58,914 nucleotides of DNA from a virus (lineage: Duplodnaviria; Caudoviricetes): positions 1 to 58,914 of IMG/VR virus record IMGVR_UViG_3300031565_014856; one strand, given 5' to 3'. This document shows positions 5,121-57,945 of the stretch, in pieces; the first letter of the stretch is position 1; every line of letters starts with the position of its first letter. Under the pieces are notes generated by a model. It was not told where the DNA came from, made no database searches, and was given only the letters and a program-made list of their open reading frames with translations. The position numbers and the translations under genes were made by a program.

Positions 5121-5160
5121 AGCTAATATAACAATAATACCCGAAATAAAAAAATTTTGG
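5121..5160 (-). promoter_or_regulatory. recurrent phage promoter (TTTTTnnnTCGG..N..TTATATT(T/A)G); representative copy
   Basis: Near-identical motif also at ~9222, 12094, 17734, 18311, 22010, 24214, 28334, 41544, 44742, 46343, 48127, 50592, 51481, 53405, 54212, 55206 (minus) and 55715 (plus); matches Bacteroidota -7 element TAnnTTTG. Confidence 0.8.
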
Positions 5161-5196
5161 TGAATTTTTATCACCTAAGGACTAAAATTTATCATT

Positions 5197-12415: not shown

Positions 12416-14092
12416 TTATATCTCGATAGCGTTTATAGCATCGATGACTTCGTTGATATTTACTTCCATTTGTGGAATTTTTTCGTAAATATCTTGAGTG
12501 TATCCGTAAAGACGGAATACCTTTTGTCCACCCTTTATAGGAGCGGTTGTTGAATATCCAACAACATCAATCAAGTAAACGTATGGGGTTCCAAACTTGT
12601 TTACATACTTCTTGAAGTTGTCTTCAACTCTACTGTATCCATCTTGCATGTCAGAGATTATTACAACTCTGTCATACTGAGTGTTATTATCTGCGAACAG
12701 ATTGAAGCAAGACGCAAAGTCAGTACCGTGACTACACTTTCCGTTGTAAGAAGTAAACTTCTTCTTCAGAGTGTTAACAGAATCAGTTGGGTTCCATCCA
12801 GTAATCTTTTCAGACCATGATGCAAAGTGATAAACATCACCTCCGATGCCCTTTGCAAAAGTAGCGGCAACTAGTGCAGCCTTCTCAGCAGGGGTTGAGC
12901 TGGATCTCTTACCACCTGGAAGCGCAACGCCTCTACCAGTCATAGAACCAGATGTATCGAATACAACTGCAGTTCTACCTTCAGGAAGCAATTCCTTAAG
13001 GTTTGGAATGGAAGCTTCATACGCCTTTCCAAGCGCATCGGCAACCTTAGCCAATTGACGACCGTTGAATTCAAGAAGCATAACTTCAAGAGCAAGGTCA
13101 ATTTGGTGTGGCCATACAAGTGACTTCTTAATGAACTTAGGTTCAATAAGCAATTCACACGCAGCATCCAATAGAGGAGTATCATTAGTCTTAAGAATGT
13201 TTCTCAAGTTACGAAGCAATGCCAAGTAACCAATCTTCTTAGTCTTGATAAGTTCCGCATAGTTTTCAGTCTTTTGTTCAACGAGAACCTTTTCAGCTTC
13301 CGCCTTAGTGATTTCGCCTGACTTAACTGCTTCTGCAACCTTCTTACCAGTTTCAGTGTTCTTATCTTCAACAGTATTGAACTGCTTTAGGATTCCAAGA
13401 ACAAGAGCACGAAGTGCAGGAACTCTTACAGTTCCTTCAACAACTTCGTTGAATGTGTCCTTTTCGAACTTTGTACCAACAATAGCCTTGATGTAATCTG
13501 CAGTTGGTACATCAACGTAGCCATTCTTTTCAGTTGGAACTGGGTGAACAGCGTTAACGATGTCAACCAAACTCAAAGTGCTAGACTTCATTTGGTACTT
13601 AGCAAGTTCGTACGCATCAGCGTTTTCAATAGCGCCCTTGAAACCTCTCTTCATGGCACCTGGAATGGTATTGGTCTTATTCTTCGCACGGTAGCACGCA
13701 AGAATTTCCATCATATCGTCAAGACGATAGATTATACCACCTTCGTTGCCCTTACGGTTTCTCTTAGAGAAGAATCTCTTTCCAAGTTCATCACCAGAAA
13801 GGTGAGGCAATAGATTAACCGCTCCAACGTGGGTAACGGATCTTTGACCGAATACGCTACGTGCATAGACGAGTGCCTTTGCAGCAAAGAGCTTATCTTT
13901 CTTCGCGATGGTATCAATAACTTCGCGCAAACGAGTTTCGCGTTCTGATTCCTTTTCATAAAAGGTATTCTGGATTCCTGTGGATAGGATTCCTACGAGT
14001 TCATGTTCTGGTCTTTGGGTTTGACCGGATCCACCTTGGTGAGTAGTAGTCTTTTGAACTACAGGTTCTCTCTTTTGATTGTACTTAGACAT
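12416..14092 (-). CDS. Ro60/Rsr-like TROVE-domain RNA-binding protein with C-terminal vWA domain
   Basis: N-terminal NTFYE, ALVYARSVFGQRS, LAKY, ALLRNLRN; vWA MIDAS DTSGSM, GTD, IISDMQ. Confidence 0.88.
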   Translation of the reverse strand: MSKYNQKREPVVQKTTTHQGGSGQTQRPEHELVGILSTGIQNTFYEKESERETRLREVIDTIAKKDKLFAAKALVYARSVFGQRSVTHVGAVNLLPHLSGDELGKRFFSKRNRKGNEGGIIYRLDDMMEILACYRAKNKTNTIPGAMKRGFKGAIENADAYELAKYQMKSSTLSLVDIVNAVHPVPTEKNGYVDVPTADYIKAIVGTKFEKDTFNEVVEGTVRVPALRALVLGILKQFNTVEDKNTETGKKVAEAVKSGEITKAEAEKVLVEQKTENYAELIKTKKIGYLALLRNLRNILKTNDTPLLDAACELLIEPKFIKKSLVWPHQIDLALEVMLLEFNGRQLAKVADALGKAYEASIPNLKELLPEGRTAVVFDTSGSMTGRGVALPGGKRSSSTPAEKAALVAATFAKGIGGDVYHFASWSEKITGWNPTDSVNTLKKKFTSYNGKCSHGTDFASCFNLFADNNTQYDRVVIISDMQDGYSRVEDNFKKYVNKFGTPYVYLIDVVGYSTTAPIKGGQKVFRLYGYTQDIYEKIPQMEVNINEVIDAINAIEI

Positions 14093-16002: not shown

Positions 16003-16019
16003 TCACATCCTTCTGGTCG

Positions 16020-16093
16020 CGATCCCAGCGGGACTCGAACCCGCGACGCTTGCTTTTAGAGAGCAACGCTCTGACCAACTGAGCTATGGGACC
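16020..16093 (-). tRNA. amber suppressor tRNA (anticodon CUA)
   Basis: Full cloverleaf: GGTCCCA/TGGGATC acceptor, anticodon arm TTGCT-CTCTAAA-AGCAA, T-loop TTCGAGT. Confidence 0.88.
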
Positions 16094-17731: not shown

Positions 17732-17772
17732 ATTGCTAATATAAACTAAAAACCCGAATTAAAAAATATTTG

Positions 17773-18252: not shown

Positions 18253-18353
18253 TTTATATAAATTTAGTTTAACTTAACGAGCCATCAACGACCCGCATTA
18301 ATAATATACTTGAATATAACAAAAATATCTGAGATAAAAAAATTTTGGGGCAA

Positions 18354-24056: not shown

Positions 24057-24261
24057 ATATCTCGTTCAACACACCAAGTATTCATTTTCATTCCAATGTT
24101 AAACCAAACGTCAACGTCGGTTTGAGTGTTGGCATTTTGAATCCTCTTGCAAATAAAATCGGCTATTTTTTGAAGAATCTTTGTTTTCATTATGTGTTGT
24201 TTTGTTAATCTGAGGCTAATATAACCATAATTACCGAAACGAGAAAATTTTTAATTAAAAA

Positions 24262-24837: not shown

Positions 24838-25281
24838 CTAACATGTTAGTCTATTTTTATGATTTCTTCCTCTAAATGTCGGAGTTTGAGAATGGCAATT
24901 TGGACAAAGAATTTGTAAATTTTTTAATCTATTGTCTTTATTATTTCCATTTATATGATCAAGCTCCAAAACTAAAACTTCTTCAAACCATTCTTCCCCT
25001 TGACCACATTTTTCACATTTAGGTTTTTTGTATCCTTCAGCAATCAATCTATTTTTTAAATTATAAGATCTCATGTTTTTCTTTCCTGAAAAAACATCTT
25101 CTAAAAGAGTAACAAGTTTTTGCGTTCCTTTGCCCCCTTGATTTGGTTTCCAACATTCAAGTTTTAAAGCTCTTCTTTTAAAAGTTTGATATGGAATTCC
25201 TACTCTTTTTGCTGCTAATGACATTGTTGCCTCTTCATTACAGGCTTTAATAATATCATCCATTAATTCTTTTTCACTCAT
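24838..25281 (-). CDS. HNH endonuclease within the tRNA array
   Basis: CEKCG, LELDHINGNNKDNRLKNLQILCPNCHSQT. Confidence 0.88.
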   Translation of the reverse strand: MSEKELMDDIIKACNEEATMSLAAKRVGIPYQTFKRRALKLECWKPNQGGKGTQKLVTLLEDVFSGKKNMRSYNLKNRLIAEGYKKPKCEKCGQGEEWFEEVLVLELDHINGNNKDNRLKNLQILCPNCHSQTPTFRGRNHKNRLTC

Positions 25282-25327
25282 GGTAAACACTTTATTTTAT
25301 ATATCTAAGTGTCTACCAAATTTTAAG

Positions 25328-27854: not shown

Positions 27855-27861
27855 ATTACAA

Positions 27862-27996
27862 ACTGAGAAAATTGACTAGAGATATTTTATCGTGCTACCA
27901 ATTACACTAATCCCGCATAAACATGGAGCGGGACCCAGGATTCGAACCTGGACTAATCGTTCCCAAAACGAAGTAACTCTTGGTCGTTACTACAGT
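27862..27996 (-). ncRNA. Y-RNA-like motif copy 4 enclosing a circularly permuted tRNA-Pro-like module
   Basis: ACUG-UAGUAA-...UUACUUCG, loop UUUGGGA, T arm, GUCCCGC-U-CCA-linker-GCGGGAU, D arm, CUCUAGUC-AAUUUUCU-CAGU. Confidence 0.82.
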
Positions 27997-28002
27997 CTAT
28001 AG

Positions 28003-28073
28003 AGGTCCCTCCCAGATTCGAACTGGGGTCTCTGGTTTTGCAGACCAGCGCCTAACCGCTCGGCTAAGGGACC
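28003..28073 (-). tRNA. tRNA-Cys(GCA)
   Basis: cloverleaf; loop CTGCAAA; U73. Confidence 0.92.
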
Positions 28074-28111
28074 ATGGAAAACAGTACGTCAAAGAACATA
28101 TAACTTCTTCT

Positions 28112-28149
28112 AAAAAGAAAAACCCTCCAGTCTGTGTAGAAAGGAGGGT
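28112..28149 (-). terminator. attenuator terminator upstream of the tRNA operon
   Basis: ACCCTCC...GGAGGGT followed by TTTTCTTTTT. Confidence 0.75.
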
Positions 28150-28179
28150 GAAGAAGTTATATATGATATGATAATTTCC

Positions 28180-28275
28180 TTAACCTGTCTCTCCTTTCTG
28201 AGCGTAAAATGGCTCCTCACAGAGTTGCGTTAGCATCTGAGTTAAAAAGGGTTGATATGTTAAAGTTGTTATCAT
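28180..28275 (-). CDS. putative 31-aa leader peptide (MITTLTYQPFLTQMLTQLCEEPFYAQKGETG)
   Basis: short ORF between promoter and terminator; contains the antiterminator strand AGAAAGGAG. Confidence 0.6.
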   Translation of the reverse strand: MITTLTYQPFLTQMLTQLCEEPFYAQKGETG

Positions 28276-28384
28276 CACAATTTTTCTTATATTATTATAT
28301 ATAGCGTTCGTTGTTAAAAGTTTTGTAACTGAGTGCAAATATTACACTTTTTTCTGAAATAAAAAAATTTTAGTGAACTTTTTT

Positions 28385-37437: not shown

Positions 37438-38007
37438 TTATCTCTTCGCCCAGGGCAACCGTGTAATAAAATCATAATAGGATCGAATTATTTGATCGTG
37501 ACCCCACGCCCAATCGTAATGATGCAAATCTTCAATGTGTACCCATTTCATTTTTCCTACTTCTCCTTCAATCTCGTTATTATCAGCGTGTAATACAGGA
37601 AACCACCTTTGTTTAGTGTATAAACCATATCTCAGTGATACATTTTGTTTATTGTTATCGGTGGGATTTGTTTGAACGTGCCATGGTTGATCGATGTTAA
37701 CGCTATAAACCTGAATAGCGTCCTCAATCATATTGGATATATTGATGCCAACTTCTTCCCAGGTTTCCCGTATGAGCGCATCTGTACCTGATTCATCATA
37801 ATCAAGATATCCAGCGACGTTATTCCATAATCCGATATTATCTGCCGCATTTTTACCTCGTTCAGAAACAAGTGCGTATGGTCCTGGACTATCAAAATCT
37901 ATAACATCTATAAGTATTACACCATTGACAGCAACGCTTCTGCTTTCCCAGATTATTCTTCCGTCTTTAACTTTGTGCCATTTATTTGGCGTATTATTGA
38001 ATGTCAT
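37438..38007 (-). CDS. NUDIX hydrolase
   Basis: GYLDYDESGTDALIRETWEEVGI Nudix box. Confidence 0.85.
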   Translation of the reverse strand: MTFNNTPNKWHKVKDGRIIWESRSVAVNGVILIDVIDFDSPGPYALVSERGKNAADNIGLWNNVAGYLDYDESGTDALIRETWEEVGINISNMIEDAIQVYSVNIDQPWHVQTNPTDNNKQNVSLRYGLYTKQRWFPVLHADNNEIEGEVGKMKWVHIEDLHHYDWAWGHDQIIRSYYDFITRLPWAKR

Positions 38008-39302
38008 ACGTCTCTCCCTTCATTATAAATTGCTTTTACTGTTGGAAACCTTAAACTTATTTCTCCGTGTTGATTTACGGTTTCTTCAAAATATTGAACC
38101 GTTATTTCCTTGCCCACAATTCTGTCAGGGTATTTGTAGAAATACTGGCGTTGTTCAATTGAAAATCCAGATCCAACCGAAACTGGGTATCCTTTATGTT
38201 CTATCCAGACACTCCTGACCATATCCTCGGTGACCTCCAGGCCGTCAACTATGATCCTAAATGGACCAATATCAATGTCCTGTACAATGTACTCGGCGTC
38301 AAAAAACTGCTTACATTTAAGAAGATTGTTTGATCTCTTTCCCTCATATGGAGCGTCCTTACGTATCATAATTCCTTCCCATCCATTCTTTTGGGCCATT
38401 GTATTTAGTTCGGTCAAGTGTTCACCTGACTCAACTTTCCATTGTTCAACGTGGCTAAGAACATCTCCATAATAATTATCCATCATAAACCTGATAAACT
38501 TTTGTCTTTCTGATGAAATTTGAGAGCTGTACTTCTTTTGAAAATGATCAAGATCTAACAAATCAAATATCTTAAACCGGGGATTTTGAATGGTGTGATC
38601 TTTTTTATTGTATTCCTTTAAGATAGCCTGGAAATCTTCGTCTCCGTTTTCGTTTACTATACATAATTCACCATCAAGCACAGTATCTATTAAATTTAAA
38701 GGTAACAATGCTTCTTTTACTTTATCAAGTGTAAGAAATTCATTACCGTTTCGAGAGTATGCTTTGATGCTTCCGTCGTGATCGATAATTACAATACATC
38801 GAACTCCATCAAGTTTCCTACTAGCATACCAAGTATCCTTTTTAAAATCCACCTTCTTCACCATCTTCTCATCATACTTATTTGCCAACGCGACATCAAA
38901 TGTAGGAATAAGATCAGGGAAAACTTTGTTTATGATTTTCTCAGACACCCTCGTTTTAAGGTTACGATCAAATATATTAAGAATGATTTCTTTATATTCA
39001 ATATTATCTCTGATAAATGCATTGACATCGGCAATAGCTTCGTGCCCCGTTATTCTTCTATTTCCAAGATCGTCCAATAAATCTAGAATATCTTCATGAG
39101 ATTGACGTGATACCAAATCAGATCTTTTGATTATATTCTTTGGGGTTACATAATATTGTACGAATGGGTTATGAGTAGCTTTCAAAATGGCCTTTATGAA
39201 TTCTGTATCATATTCAGGCTTTGAAAGTGTAGCAGTTTTTTCGAGTGTTGAATTCGAAACATTGAGCTCATCAATGAGCTGTTTGAGAAGATTAAATTCC
39301 AT
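38004..39302 (-). CDS. ATP-dependent DNA ligase
   Basis: KLDGVR, LDGE, EGIMIR, LLKCK, VGSGFS, SLRFP. Confidence 0.93.
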   Translation of the reverse strand: MEFNLLKQLIDELNVSNSTLEKTATLSKPEYDTEFIKAILKATHNPFVQYYVTPKNIIKRSDLVSRQSHEDILDLLDDLGNRRITGHEAIADVNAFIRDNIEYKEIILNIFDRNLKTRVSEKIINKVFPDLIPTFDVALANKYDEKMVKKVDFKKDTWYASRKLDGVRCIVIIDHDGSIKAYSRNGNEFLTLDKVKEALLPLNLIDTVLDGELCIVNENGDEDFQAILKEYNKKDHTIQNPRFKIFDLLDLDHFQKKYSSQISSERQKFIRFMMDNYYGDVLSHVEQWKVESGEHLTELNTMAQKNGWEGIMIRKDAPYEGKRSNNLLKCKQFFDAEYIVQDIDIGPFRIIVDGLEVTEDMVRSVWIEHKGYPVSVGSGFSIEQRQYFYKYPDRIVGKEITVQYFEETVNQHGEISLRFPTVKAIYNEGRDV

Positions 39303-40398
39303 ATCTTTGTTTTCTTATTTTTAGTAACAGATCATCTAAAAGTTCTTGATCTATGTCTTTTGGTAAATCACATTCATCATAAACCTTATCGAGTTCTTCG
39401 ATCATCGCCTCTGCTTCTTTAACGAGTTTGTCATATTCATATTCTCCTCGTCTTATCTCCATAAGAATTTTTATTTCTTCATCGGGTCTGCGAACGTTGA
39501 TAAATTTGATCTTTGGGATTTCCAATGCAACATTCAAAAGACGAAATGTATGCATCATATTTTTGGAATCGTAATTTTTTCCGTGAGACTTATTCATCTT
39601 AACACGATCAGGGTTTCTTTCTTTCAGCCACGTTTGATATTCCTTATATCTTTTGCAATGTGTTGAGTACGCGTCCTTATTAAATATAAGGTATCCAATA
39701 ACCATTAATCCTTTGGGAATGGAAGTTAACTGTACATCATTTGCTGTAACAGGATCAGAAACTATGCCGCTTCCTTCGTGTCTACGGTGAAGTTGATACA
39801 TTGCATAAACATCATGTGCGTGGTCAACTTTTGCTAAACCAAAATCTCTTTGATCTATAGTATCTAACGTTCCAGATTGGTAGTACCTGTTAAAGTATTC
39901 ATTAAGAGTGATTGAACCTCCTTCTTGAAGAACATAACAGAAGTCCAATACATTCTTACGAGTCATCTGTGATTCTTCCCAGTTCATCTTCTTGTTATAC
40001 CCTTTGGCCTTTTTGATTTGATCGATAGCATATCCAGCAAAGGAGTAACGACACGTTTTCGTTAGAAATTTTGATGCGTGATAAGAAATGGATCCCCATT
40101 CTGTAGAATCGTGTTGAACACAATCTTCCGGGGCAAAAAGCAGTTCAAGAACTGTTGGGTTGTTTGTGCGAACAAGAGCAAGAAATCTACTAAGTTCGTA
40201 GTAGACGATATCATTTAAGTCGTCTGCAACCTGCTCAACATACCCATGTTTGAGTATGTCTTCCAACGGTTGCACAAAAACTCCTCGCAAATCTGTGTCG
40301 GATGTCGGTAACGATGTCCCATATGCATGGGATCCCATTATTGCTTCGAAGATAATTAAATCTTCGTCTTTTAAATATTGTATCGTGTAGTTTTTCAT
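39292..40398 (-). CDS. Pol-beta superfamily nucleotidyltransferase
   Basis: GSHAYGTSLPTSDTDLRG, NPTVLELL, YDSKNMMHTFRL. Confidence 0.8.
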   Translation of the reverse strand: MKNYTIQYLKDEDLIIFEAIMGSHAYGTSLPTSDTDLRGVFVQPLEDILKHGYVEQVADDLNDIVYYELSRFLALVRTNNPTVLELLFAPEDCVQHDSTEWGSISYHASKFLTKTCRYSFAGYAIDQIKKAKGYNKKMNWEESQMTRKNVLDFCYVLQEGGSITLNEYFNRYYQSGTLDTIDQRDFGLAKVDHAHDVYAMYQLHRRHEGSGIVSDPVTANDVQLTSIPKGLMVIGYLIFNKDAYSTHCKRYKEYQTWLKERNPDRVKMNKSHGKNYDSKNMMHTFRLLNVALEIPKIKFINVRRPDEEIKILMEIRRGEYEYDKLVKEAEAMIEELDKVYDECDLPKDIDQELLDDLLLKIRKQRYGI

Positions 40399-55747: not shown

Positions 55748-56911
55748 ATGAAGTACATGCTTACATATGAGGATGGACAAGAAGTCTGCAAACACTACAA
55801 GAACTTCAATTTTTCTGAACACCAATTTCGAATAAGAGGTTTTAAAGTGTCTACGTTTGATTATTTCATATGTGGTTATAACGATTTCGCGAAGCCCCTT
55901 CCACACAAGTCCGAAGTGAATGCGTTTGATATGAGGGGTGTGACGTTCGTCTTTAATAAAGATGGAACTTTGTGGAATAAATTCTTCATGTTGCCAAAGT
56001 TCTTCAACCTGAATCAAATCGAGGAAACTCAATATCTTAAGGTAAAAGATAAGAAGATCAAACACATTTCTTGTAAGGAAGACGGATCATTGGTAACATT
56101 CATGATGACTCCTGACGAAAAGCTGTTTTCCAAGACCATAAGAGGATTTGATAACGATCAGGCGGTGGCTGCCATGAATTTACTTGGCGCATGGGAAGAA
56201 CGTATGATATGGGTGAAAACTCTTCTTCGACAGGGACTAACCCCGTTGTTTGAATACGTGTCTTGGGATAACAGAATCGTTCTAAAATATTCTAAGCCAC
56301 AGTTGAGATTCATTGGGGTAAGAGATAGTTACAATGGAATGTTCTTTCCTGCCTCTGAGATGAACCAGGCTTACATCCCTGAAGGTGTATATGTTATACC
56401 CAAGGTAGATGCGACTCTCGATGAGTTGATTGAGTTATCTAAGACCGAGGAGAACATTGAAGGATGGGTTGTGATATTCGAAGATGGTACCATGATCAAG
56501 ATCAAGACCCTGTGGTACTTTAACATACACGGTGTGAGAACCGAAAGCATCTTTAGAGAGGATTACATCATTAAGAATTATTATGAAGAAACACTGGATG
56601 ATGTGTTGGCGCAGTTGGATCCAAATGAAGACAAAGATGCGTTTGATTTTGTTAACGTGGTAACACACGCCATTGATAAGTATTCTAATCACATTGATGA
56701 ATGTGTAGAGGAAATGGCGAACCAATTGAATTTGAATTATAATGAAGATTGGAGCAAATTTGCCACAGAAATGCACAAGAAACCATACTTCCAATATGTA
56801 AAATTTTGGATACAGGATAAGAATGAATACAAGAAGCGTAAGATAGAAAATGTGTTGGCACTTACGTATAGATTAAAAAGAGCCCAACAAATAGTGGAAA
56901 AATGGAAATAG
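55748..56911 (+). CDS. T4 Rnl1-like RNA ligase
   Basis: PKFFNLNQ, KEDGSL (motif I), FEYVSWDNRIV, EGWV, KIKT.WY. Confidence 0.88.
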   Translation: MKYMLTYEDGQEVCKHYKNFNFSEHQFRIRGFKVSTFDYFICGYNDFAKPLPHKSEVNAFDMRGVTFVFNKDGTLWNKFFMLPKFFNLNQIEETQYLKVKDKKIKHISCKEDGSLVTFMMTPDEKLFSKTIRGFDNDQAVAAMNLLGAWEERMIWVKTLLRQGLTPLFEYVSWDNRIVLKYSKPQLRFIGVRDSYNGMFFPASEMNQAYIPEGVYVIPKVDATLDELIELSKTEENIEGWVVIFEDGTMIKIKTLWYFNIHGVRTESIFREDYIIKNYYEETLDDVLAQLDPNEDKDAFDFVNVVTHAIDKYSNHIDECVEEMANQLNLNYNEDWSKFATEMHKKPYFQYVKFWIQDKNEYKKRKIENVLALTYRLKRAQQIVEKWK

Positions 56912-57945
56912 TGGTTTTAAATAGAGATGACTTTCGTAACGGTGTTTTCGAACGCGATGGTTACCAATGTGTGATTTGTAAAGAACCCGCTGTTGATGCT
57001 CACCACATCATGGAAAGACGATTGTTTGCCAATGGTGGATACTTTCTTGATAATGGTGCATCGCTCTGTGAGAAGCATCACCTTGAAGCAGAAATGACTA
57101 CTTTAGATTGTGATACCATACGTTCTGCCGCGGGCATAACGCGCGTTATATTACCAGACCATCTCTATACCGAAGTGGAATATGATAAGTGGGGTAACGA
57201 AATACTTAAAAGCGGTGAGCGATTGCAAGGAGAATTGTTTAATGATGAATCAGTTCAAAAGATACTTAAACAAGGAAACGTACTTGGTGATTTTACAAAC
57301 AGAATCAAATATCCAAGAACGTATCACTTACCTTGGTCTCCAGGGATGAATAGGGATGATCGAATGATGACAGATGTGGGTATATTTGATGGCCAACAAG
57401 TGATGATATGTGAGAAACTTGATGGAGAAAACACGACCTGGTATAAAGATCACATGCACGCAAGATCAATAAATACAGATTCACACCCATCAAGAAATTG
57501 GGTAAAGAATTTATGGGCCCAAAAGGCGTACAATATTCCTGATGGGTGGAGAGTGTGTGGCGAGAATTTGTTTGCAAAACACGCCATACATTATGCTGAA
57601 GAAAACGGAAACGCCCTTAAAACATTTTTCTATATGTTCTCTATATGGGACGAAAGAAATGTGTGTTTAAGTTGGAAAGAAACAAAAGAATGGGCGGAAC
57701 TGTTAGAACTTGATTTAGTCCCAGTTTATTACGAAGGAGTTTACGATGAAGATGTAATAGAAAGGATTAATAAAACCATGGAACAAAATCCAGGAACTGT
57801 TGAGGGATATGTAATTCGTTTAACGAGGGAATATCACTATTCAGAGTTCAGGAATGTTTGTGGGAAATACGTAAGAAAAAACCACGTCCAAAACAACCAC
57901 GGACATTGGGCCCAACAAAAAATAACAAAGAATGAGCTCATATAG
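56902..57945 (+). CDS. RNA ligase with N-terminal HNH-like domain
   Basis: N-term RDGYQCVIC..DAHHI..NGASLC..HH; ligase KYPRTYHLPWS, EKLDGEN, GEN, EGYVIR, KYVR. Confidence 0.85.
   Translation: MEIVVLNRDDFRNGVFERDGYQCVICKEPAVDAHHIMERRLFANGGYFLDNGASLCEKHHLEAEMTTLDCDTIRSAAGITRVILPDHLYTEVEYDKWGNEILKSGERLQGELFNDESVQKILKQGNVLGDFTNRIKYPRTYHLPWSPGMNRDDRMMTDVGIFDGQQVMICEKLDGENTTWYKDHMHARSINTDSHPSRNWVKNLWAQKAYNIPDGWRVCGENLFAKHAIHYAEENGNALKTFFYMFSIWDERNVCLSWKETKEWAELLELDLVPVYYEGVYDEDVIERINKTMEQNPGTVEGYVIRLTREYHYSEFRNVCGKYVRKNHVQNNHGHWAQQKITKNELI

Follow-up and report, generated by a model that had tools for sequence, protein, structure and literature searches.

Introduction

Leader-peptide attenuation is a textbook mechanism of gene control, found in the trp, his, thr, leu, ilv and pheA operons of Proteobacteria. 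Some of these leaders respond to more than one amino acid: the thr leader to Thr and Ile, and the ilv leader to Ile, Leu and Val. The pheST operon, which encodes phenylalanyl-transfer RNA (tRNA) synthetase, also has an attenuator with a Phe-rich leader. The attenuators that we know of regulate only genes for amino-acid biosynthesis or for aminoacyl-tRNA synthetases. The tRNA genes carried by phages are usually seen as a fixed supplement to codon usage or as a counter to the loss of host tRNAs, and how their expression is controlled is, to our knowledge, largely unknown. Here, we analyze the IMG/VR virus record IMGVR_UViG_3300031565_014856 (Duplodnaviria; Caudoviricetes) over its whole length of 58,914 bases, which we refer to as the window. 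On its minus strand, a 31-codon open reading frame (ORF) and an intrinsic terminator stand in front of an array of tRNA genes. From sequence analysis and modelling we propose that this leader is probably a ribosome-mediated leader-peptide attenuator that would control the tRNA array of a jumbo phage by sensing the supply of the same tRNAs.

Closest to this arrangement in spirit is pheST, where leader-peptide attenuation controls a translation gene whose product acts on the amino acid being sensed. It differs in that a synthetase is controlled, a single amino acid is sensed and the setting is bacterial. Similar to the attenuators of amino-acid operons (for pheL, see PMC3082878), the window leader has a short ORF rich in codons of the controlled function, segments able to pair 1:2, 2:3 and 3:4, and a terminator before the first structural gene, with the position of the ribosome predicted to decide the structure. 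Unlike those attenuators, it stands in a phage, it would control tRNAs and not biosynthetic enzymes, such that the sensed molecule is the product, it samples up to nine amino acids, and several such devices per genome appear to partition the tRNA set. By sequence and modelling, the leader thus shows the structural features of the leader-peptide attenuator class that could be tested; the genes behind it are 18 tRNA genes, not genes for amino-acid biosynthesis or aminoacyl-tRNA synthetases. Searches of the open literature for leader-peptide control of tRNA genes or of phage tRNA arrays came up empty, and an opinion article on phage tRNAs (PMC11025619) nowhere uses the words attenuat-, leader, terminator or promoter.

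Results

Organization of the locus

The elements follow one another on the minus strand in the order promoter box, 31-codon ORF, intrinsic terminator, 10-nucleotide (nt) box and tRNA-Cys (Table 1). A preliminary description, made from the letters of the window, had named a promoter motif upstream of the leader, the 31-residue ORF, the terminator, a boxA-like sequence and the first tRNA. Each is present. The ORF runs from ATG to TAA at the coordinates described, and of the boxA-like sequence only the placement needed correction, since the conserved box lies one base away from the position that had been implied.

The terminator has a G+C stem of 7 base pairs (bp), a 14-nt loop that contains a 3-bp upper stem, and a T-run, and it is conserved in all relatives. 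Only eight perfect-stem terminator-like hairpins occur on the minus strand of the window, and this is the sole one before or within the tRNA region. A simple scan missed it because the loop limit of that scan was 8. The hairpin and T-run are enclosed by an outer inverted repeat whose 5' arm is kept in one other lineage and whose 3' arm occurs in the window only; it might be a processing site for read-through transcripts.

Table 1. Coordinates of the leader region and its elements in the window.
Feature	Position	Strand	Remarks
Promoter-like module: A/T-rich 22-nt upstream motif (28377-28356) and -7-type box (28347-28335)	28335..28377	-	repeat family
Leader ORF, 31 codons and TAA, ATG at 28275	28180..28275	-	conserved, frame kept
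Segment 1 (codons 9-11), partner of segment 2 in the closed fold	28244..28250	-	minimum free energy fold 7/7; RNAalifold columns 66-70 / 125-129
Segment 2, purine-rich 9-mer, codons 26-29, 8 nt before the stop	28191..28199	-	alternative partner: segment 1 or terminator 5' arm
3' strands of P2 (28184-28178, including the stop codon) and P1 (28174-28162)	28162..28184	-	pair with 28278-28259
Outer inverted repeat, 13 bp, perfect, 28162-28150 / 28110-28098, enclosing hairpin and T-run	28098..28162	-	window-specific
Intrinsic terminator: 7-bp stem (28149-28143 / 28128-28122), loop with upper stem, and T-run (28122-28112)	28112..28149	-	conserved
boxA-like box between terminator and first tRNA	28088..28097	-	conserved 10 nt
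tRNA-Cys, first gene of the array	28002..28073	-	ARAGORN; Rfam

ARAGORN finds 18 tRNA genes in the window, every one on the minus strand between 28073 and 16019: Cys, two Thr, Gln, two Pro, four Leu, two Glu, three Tyr, Phe, Met and one with the anticodon CTA. Phage ORFs are interspersed among these 18 genes downstream of the leader. In an Rfam scan of the window, tRNAs were the sole families at the gathering score. The window has a G+C content of ∼36%, almost all of its long ORFs lie on the minus strand, and by estimate it makes up ∼15% of the genome. Because relatives reach 323-357 kb, we regard it as a fragment of a jumbo phage. Neither the leader region (blastn) nor the neighboring 321-residue protein (tblastn) matched any GenBank phage.

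Within the window array, HNH endonuclease ORFs are dispersed, for example at 24838-25290 (-). The tRNA with the anticodon CTA, of the amber-suppressor type, closes the array at 16019-16093 (-), and a tRNA of this type likewise closes the array in the related records G001, G002, G003 and L038.

The leader is written in codons of the downstream tRNAs

Under standard wobble rules, 25 of the 31 leader codons are readable by the 18 tRNAs that lie downstream (binomial P = 2.5e-6). The background for this comparison was 0.389, the fraction of the same codons in 56 long ORFs of the window. None of 10,294 windows of 31 codons taken within genes reached 25, the maximum being 22, and the leader ranked first for array-codon content among 349 small ORFs on both strands. 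The matching codons are concentrated at one end of the ORF. Between codons 3 and 24 almost every codon belongs to the array set, and most of the final seven do not. That the leader is composed of codons of the tRNAs it precedes had gone unseen in the preliminary description, and it names the signal to which the leader would respond.

The reading frame is conserved in four lineages

The gene upstream of the leader encodes a protein of 321 residues with 94 homologues in the protein collection. A scan of viral contigs with a single protein as the query returned nothing, and a scan with an alignment of 47 homologues succeeded, yielding 17 viral loci. A tRNA array that starts with tRNA-Cys follows in 7 of them. 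A covariance model built from the leader, R1, matched the window and 8 of the 17 loci carrying the 321-residue gene at E ≤ 5e-23, and a degenerate leader pattern found the same 8 viral contigs together with 9 metagenome contigs. In total, the leader is represented by 18 copies with 13 distinct sequences in four lineages, in which the neighboring protein is 41-59% identical to that of the window. Two other matches were set aside. One metagenome match of the degenerate pattern (L029) lies within a gene, has no tRNAs and is a chance match, and the single match of the exact terminator pattern (L003) falls on an unrelated contig of high G+C content without tRNAs.

In every copy, an ORF of 29-32 codons that starts with ATG is accompanied by the box and by an identical terminator stem followed by a T-run. 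When the distant record G001 (323 kb) is counted with the four lineages, the range is 29-33 codons. Across these lineages and G001, at least five indels have occurred in the ORF, all of them multiples of three, and the start and stop codons remain at equivalent positions. Between the window and the relative L022, the differences at codon positions 1, 2 and 3 number 4, 5 and 9, respectively, and amino-acid replacements in the leader fall mostly within one restricted set. Strain variants in public DNA runs show one synonymous change in a Glu codon and one replacement of Thr by Pro, which is another amino acid of the array. We infer from these sequence features that the leader ORF is translated. 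The peptide itself had no match in PHROGs, where only neighboring genes gave matches, all of them weak.

The codon match extends to other lineages. Compared with each lineage's own tRNA set, 18/23, 19/23 and 20/23 head codons of the leader are array codons.

Some copies of the locus depart from this layout. In L021/L025, an ORF resembling homing endonucleases (HNH) is inserted between the box and tRNA-Cys. One lineage lacks a separate promoter, and three of its copies have the leader joined in frame to the gene upstream. The leader stop in the L028 lineage is TAG; given a tRNA with the anticodon CTA, suppression at this codon would carry ribosomes through the terminator. Additionally, public DNA runs X2 and X4 contain two variant contigs in which the flanks are kept and positions 28100-28182 or 28100-28314 are replaced by unread letters of similar length, as would be expected if strains whose leader or terminator has diverged strongly were present side by side.

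Predicted alternative structures of the leader

The 272-nt leader folds with a z score of -4.69, and none of 200 shuffled sequences was equally stable. When seven sequences were folded separately, all seven minimum free energy (MFE) structures contained the same closed leader, made up of P1, P2, the helix between segments 1 and 2 and two small hairpins in between, followed by the terminator. P1 and P2, which pair with the region of the start codon, both show compensatory changes. RNAalifold, applied to a MAFFT alignment, likewise returned the closed leader and terminator, with 37 pairs, 5 of which carry double compensatory changes; the upper stem of the terminator shows compensatory changes at columns 186/195. 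In the window-type leaders that were folded, the pairing between segments 1 and 2 overlaps the regulatory codons.

Segment 2 has a second possible partner. It is the exact complement, over 9 bp, of 28146-28138 in the 5' arm of the terminator. This complementarity, which the preliminary description had pointed out for the window, recurs in orthologues and in four leaders of unrelated sequence that belong to other tRNA sub-arrays, where it changes with the local terminator. Of 5000 dinucleotide shuffles, 19 produced a perfect complement of 9 nt or more joining the 175-nt leader to the 5' arm region. Among the lineages, the segment 2 motif is kept as the same nucleotides in two different reading frames, and it is thus an RNA element. 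When the terminator 3' arm was left out of the fold, as in a nascent RNA, segment 2 paired with the 5' arm in the MFE structure of 4 of 6 sequences. The antiterminator domain formed in this way, which contains an inner hairpin built from the region after the stop, has a predicted stability of -15.7 to -21.2 kcal/mol, compared with -11.9 to -15.7 kcal/mol for the terminator.

A conserved, well-defined fold with alternative structures is also what one would expect of an attenuator that acts through RNA alone or through a bound protein, whether T-box-like, PyrR-like or controlled by a phage protein, with the reading frame incidental. Similar to the PyrR attenuator (RF00515), the leader has an anti-antiterminator stem followed by a terminator, and it gives a weak full-length match to that family (27.4 bits, E = 0.04-0.11). 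However, the gathering score is 54, twice this value, a 34-nt insert takes the place of the loop with the PyrR-binding motif, and the locus has no link to pyrimidine genes. T-box riboswitches also sense the state of tRNA through a terminator/antiterminator leader, and their targets are tRNA-charging genes. They differ in binding uncharged tRNA directly, via a specifier codon and the T-box sequence, without translation, whereas the window leader has a conserved frame. The T-box covariance model had no match reaching the gathering score anywhere in the window and none with E ≤ 10 between 27850 and 28420, no other family reached threshold, and the Rfam leader families showed no similarity to the leader sequences. 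A frame that is merely incidental would hardly survive all of the indels with ATG and stop at matching places, nor would it account for a leader whose composition matches the sub-array. An attenuator of this RNA-only or protein-binding kind is therefore very improbable.

The effect of a ribosome on these structures was modelled by masking positions -15 to +11 relative to the A site; the model is an equilibrium one that permits pairing across the ribosome, and its values are indicative only. With the A site at codons 2 to ∼16-22, the 5' arm is predicted to pair with segment 2 (P 0.75-1.0). With the A site from ∼codon 23-25 to the stop, the 5' arm is predicted to be mostly free, and this holds for all four lineages. 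The preliminary description had proposed that a ribosome completing the leader masks the antiterminator and that a stalled ribosome gives read-through, and the polarity predicted by the footprint model agrees with this. We infer both the polarity of the switch and its coupling to transcription.

Matched leaders precede tRNA sub-arrays in large relatives

Among five large related records, R1 gave weak matches in two, G001 and G002. Weak matches on the opposite strand or with E > 0.01 were left out, with the exception of G002:94558-94707, which coincides with the Lys/Tyr leader described below. In G001, a homologue of the window leader that has diverged in sequence stands before tRNA-Cys. In G002, the match resembles the window leader in architecture only and has no sequence similarity to it. 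There, a 22-codon ORF with a run of His/Gln/Pro codons is followed by a terminator of different sequence and then by a Pro/His/Gln tRNA array.

The complete genome G002 (327 kb) has 55 tRNAs, and all of its 21 tRNA group starts were scanned. At four of these, a small ORF ends 21-37 nt before a perfect-stem terminator. Four orthologous leaders are present in G003 (357 kb), which is also complete. In both genomes the tRNA genes form blocks sorted by amino acid, which between them account for almost every amino acid and come in the same order; the four sub-arrays are Pro/His/Gln, Asp/Glu/Val/Leu/Ala/Trp (and Met), Lys/Tyr, and Thr/Cys/Ser/Phe/Gly/Asn/Arg.

Each leader is enriched in the amino acids of its own sub-array, by 1.7-5.0-fold (binomial P from 2e-2 to 6e-6). 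For G002, the own-set counts in the order given are 8/21 (P = 1e-4), 21/28 (P = 6e-6), 9/30 (P = 2e-2) and 25/39 (P = 3e-4). Equally strong enrichment for the four sets is found in only 1.1%, 0.07%, 3.8% and 0.5%, respectively, of the small ORFs of G002 (n = 1,493, all frames). Measured against the sets of the other sub-arrays, the leaders of G002 and G003 showed no significant enrichment (highest 1.4-fold, P ≥ 0.05). In both genomes, the true pairing of leaders with arrays is the single best of the 24 permutations.

For the antiterminator and for geometry, we compared ten leaders belonging to five families: those of the window and G001, four from G002 and four from G003. In seven of the ten, a helix of 8-13 bp (Watson-Crick or with G-U) can form between the last third of the ORF and the 5' arm of its own terminator, which no more than 6 of 1000 shuffles match. 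The ORF segment differs between G002 and G003 in concert with both arms of the terminator, and the encoded amino acid changes as well. Summed over the leaders, amino acids of the own array account for 162 of 231 codons before segment 2 and for 16 of 68 from segment 2 on. In all ten, no more than two codons separate the end of the run of own codons from the last A-site position at which segment 2 stays uncovered. In eight, 13 nt or fewer lie between segment 2 and the stop, which places the segment inside the footprint of a terminating ribosome, and the distance from the stop to the terminator arm is 21-40 nt across the set.

Taken with the window, these leaders incline us, with some reserve, to the view that the giant phages related to this one split a near-complete tRNA set into amino-acid-specific regulons, each with its own leader attenuator written in its codons, and transcribe only the sub-arrays whose tRNAs are lacking in the cell. 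Four matched sub-arrays of the ∼55 tRNA genes would explain why the tRNAs are grouped by amino acid.

Promoter module and downstream box

The promoter box upstream of the leader belongs to a repeat family that is represented at least 10 times in the window, mostly just ahead of protein genes. The 22-nt upstream part of the module occurs 3 times within 3 mismatches in the window, compared with 0.03 expected, and a self-search of the window returned a second copy of the module at 5122-5169. A simple promoter scan of the window found 10 promoter-like sites versus 11.4 expected. The module also precedes the leader in the L022/L027, L026 and G001 lineages and is not found in L028/L023. The host is probably one with Bacteroidota-type promoters. 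Elsewhere in the window, the module is often joined to a terminator hairpin just upstream, forming terminator-promoter cassettes between genes, for example at 53448-53401, 12136-12095 and 5169-5117 (-).

The 10-nt box lies between the terminator and the first tRNA. Its exact 11-mer has a single occurrence in the window, and each relative locus likewise has one copy, placed after the terminator. Variants of the box follow the terminators of the leaders G002-B, G002-D, G003-B and G003-D and that of G001. The box appears to resemble boxA of ribosomal RNA operons; this resemblance and its conservation are what the sequences show, and unlike the boxA sites of rrn operons and lambda nut it is placed after an attenuator. 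Similar to those boxA-Nus sites (PMC3177189, PMC2800207), it is short, conserved and single-stranded and stands near the beginning of a long stable-RNA unit that is not translated. By analogy, the box may act in Nus-type antitermination, a role that fits the need to keep polymerase processive through 12 kb of largely untranslated RNA.

The position of the box, 15-60 nt before the first tRNA, and a T-rich tetramer in it that is like the Bacteroidota-type -7 element could instead mean that the box belongs to a promoter of the array's own and that the hairpin merely ends the upstream operon. The box lacks the first two conserved -7 positions, however, and has no upstream partner at the right spacing. 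In G001, a box variant also occurs downstream of a plain promoter before a second tRNA array; there it lies ∼45 nt downstream of the canonical promoter box and hence inside the transcript. Moreover, the promoter of the repeated family stands upstream of the leader, and the 38 nt between the T-run and tRNA-Cys hold no further promoter-like box. A separate array promoter at this site is the least credible of the explanations considered and can be given almost no weight.

Proposed mechanism and evidence against it

In the mechanism that we propose, transcription would start from the phage promoter box, and a ribosome would load on the 31-codon leader as it is synthesized. If a tRNA of the array were scarce, the ribosome would stall within codons 3-24 and leave segment 2 free. 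Free segment 2 would capture the emerging 5' arm of the terminator, no terminator would form, and polymerase would pass the box into tRNA-Cys and the rest of the array. If these tRNAs were plentiful, the ribosome would reach the stop, 8 nt past segment 2, and cover that segment. The 5' arm would then pair with the 3' arm, and transcription would end at the T-run. A leader released by its ribosome would adopt the closed form, in which the start and stop codons are buried. As the tRNAs beyond the terminator are the very ones that read the regulatory codons, the circuit would amount to demand-driven negative feedback on tRNA supply, and it would also answer depletion of host tRNAs.

Several observations weigh against this mechanism. 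It would need coupling of translation to transcription in the host, and its support is computational throughout. The match between leader codons and array tRNAs was noticed post hoc in the window; the leaders of G002 and G003 then served as an independent test. The L028 leader fits poorly, with 9 of 22 head codons matched: it keeps Thr, Gln, Pro and Phe codons, and only Cys, Leu, Glu and Tyr tRNAs are found in the 8.5 kb downstream. Pairing to the terminator arm is also uneven. In the leaders G001-F1 and G002-B, contiguous pairing is limited to 5 bp, a value that 423 and 465 of 1000 shuffles also attain; for the 8-bp helix of G003-C, which includes G-U, the count is 60 of 1000. A second array of tRNA genes in G001 (237389-237730 (-), in L074/L069; Lys, Lys, Gly and onward, 27 tRNAs) has the promoter box and the conserved box without a leader ORF or terminator, and thus the device is not universal.

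The case for translation has its own weak side. The third-position bias of substitutions in the leader is mild, and non-synonymous changes exceed synonymous ones, so that the case lies mainly with the frame-preserving indels and the composition. Part of the peptide is conserved as sequence across the lineages, which could reflect a function of the peptide or the two small hairpins encoded there. A peptide core conserved in four lineages is what an ordinary small-protein gene would show. On that explanation, the hairpin would be the terminator or insulator of the gene, and the array would be expressed by leak-through or from other promoters, with no sensing involved. Copies of the promoter family do stand within the array, at 24215-24251, 18310-18346 and 17735-17771; none stands between the terminator and tRNA-Cys. 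A plain small protein would also leave unexplained a purine segment conserved as nucleotides in two reading frames, an ORF end that can pair with the arm of the nearby terminator and changes along with it, and five unrelated leaders that mirror the amino-acid sets of the tRNAs behind them. We consider an ordinary small-protein gene quite unlikely.

The folding model also falls short of a uniform prediction. For the untranslated nascent leader, the antiterminator form is predicted at 0.94 in the window and 1.0 in L028, but at 0.36 in L022 and 0.28 in L026, and consequently the model gives no single state in which absence of translation means termination. In untranslated L022 and L026 leaders, the 5' arm is thus predicted to be mostly unpaired, and the closed fold buries the start codon and leaves the terminator free. 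Both points would suit a switch of opposite or purely translation-dependent polarity, in which translation opens the closed fold to give read-through, a lack of ribosomes leads to termination, and the leader reports general translation capacity and not the supply of particular tRNAs. Such a switch conflicts with the prediction that the untranslated leader is antiterminated in the window and L028. It also offers no explanation for the presence of own-sub-array codons, nor for a run of them that stops just before segment 2. We judge this polarity unlikely, and attenuation by a ribosome that stalls for want of array tRNAs remains the preferred reading.

If, in addition, the tRNA set is split into regulons as outlined above, the leaders would form a virus-encoded tRNA homeostasis circuit that measures which tRNAs are lacking, codon family by codon family. 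A leader-peptide attenuator before tRNA genes would be the first case known to us in which the sensed molecule, the decoding tRNA, is also the product, giving direct feedback. It would further imply that the host couples translation to transcription closely enough for attenuation, and such leaders could serve as compact sensors of individual tRNA pools. Additionally, the phage would have an automatic response to depletion of host tRNAs or to defence by anticodon nucleases, alongside its RNA-ligase and Ro-type repair genes.

RNA-repair and Ro-type genes in the window

RNA-repair-type genes are found at 38004-40398 (-) and 55748-57945 (+), and encode an ATP-dependent ligase, an RlaP family protein, an RNA ligase like Rnl1 of T4 and an RNA ligase like Rnl2. 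Their presence suggests that tRNA damage or loss is a major pressure on the phage. With these genes in the window, cleavage of host tRNAs, which the preliminary description had offered as an example of a trigger, is plausible.

The window also encodes a protein with a TROVE (Ro60-like) domain at 12416-14092 (-), with a Pfam score of 32.1 bits. Right after tRNA-Cys, at 27861-27980 (-), lies an element with a weak Rfam match to YrlA (Y RNA-like), scoring 18.6 bits against a cut-off of 69. The TROVE protein and this YrlA-like element may be a phage pair of Ro and Y RNA. The element after tRNA-Cys is conserved in relatives, and in G001 ARAGORN labels it as an odd tRNA with a four-base anticodon.

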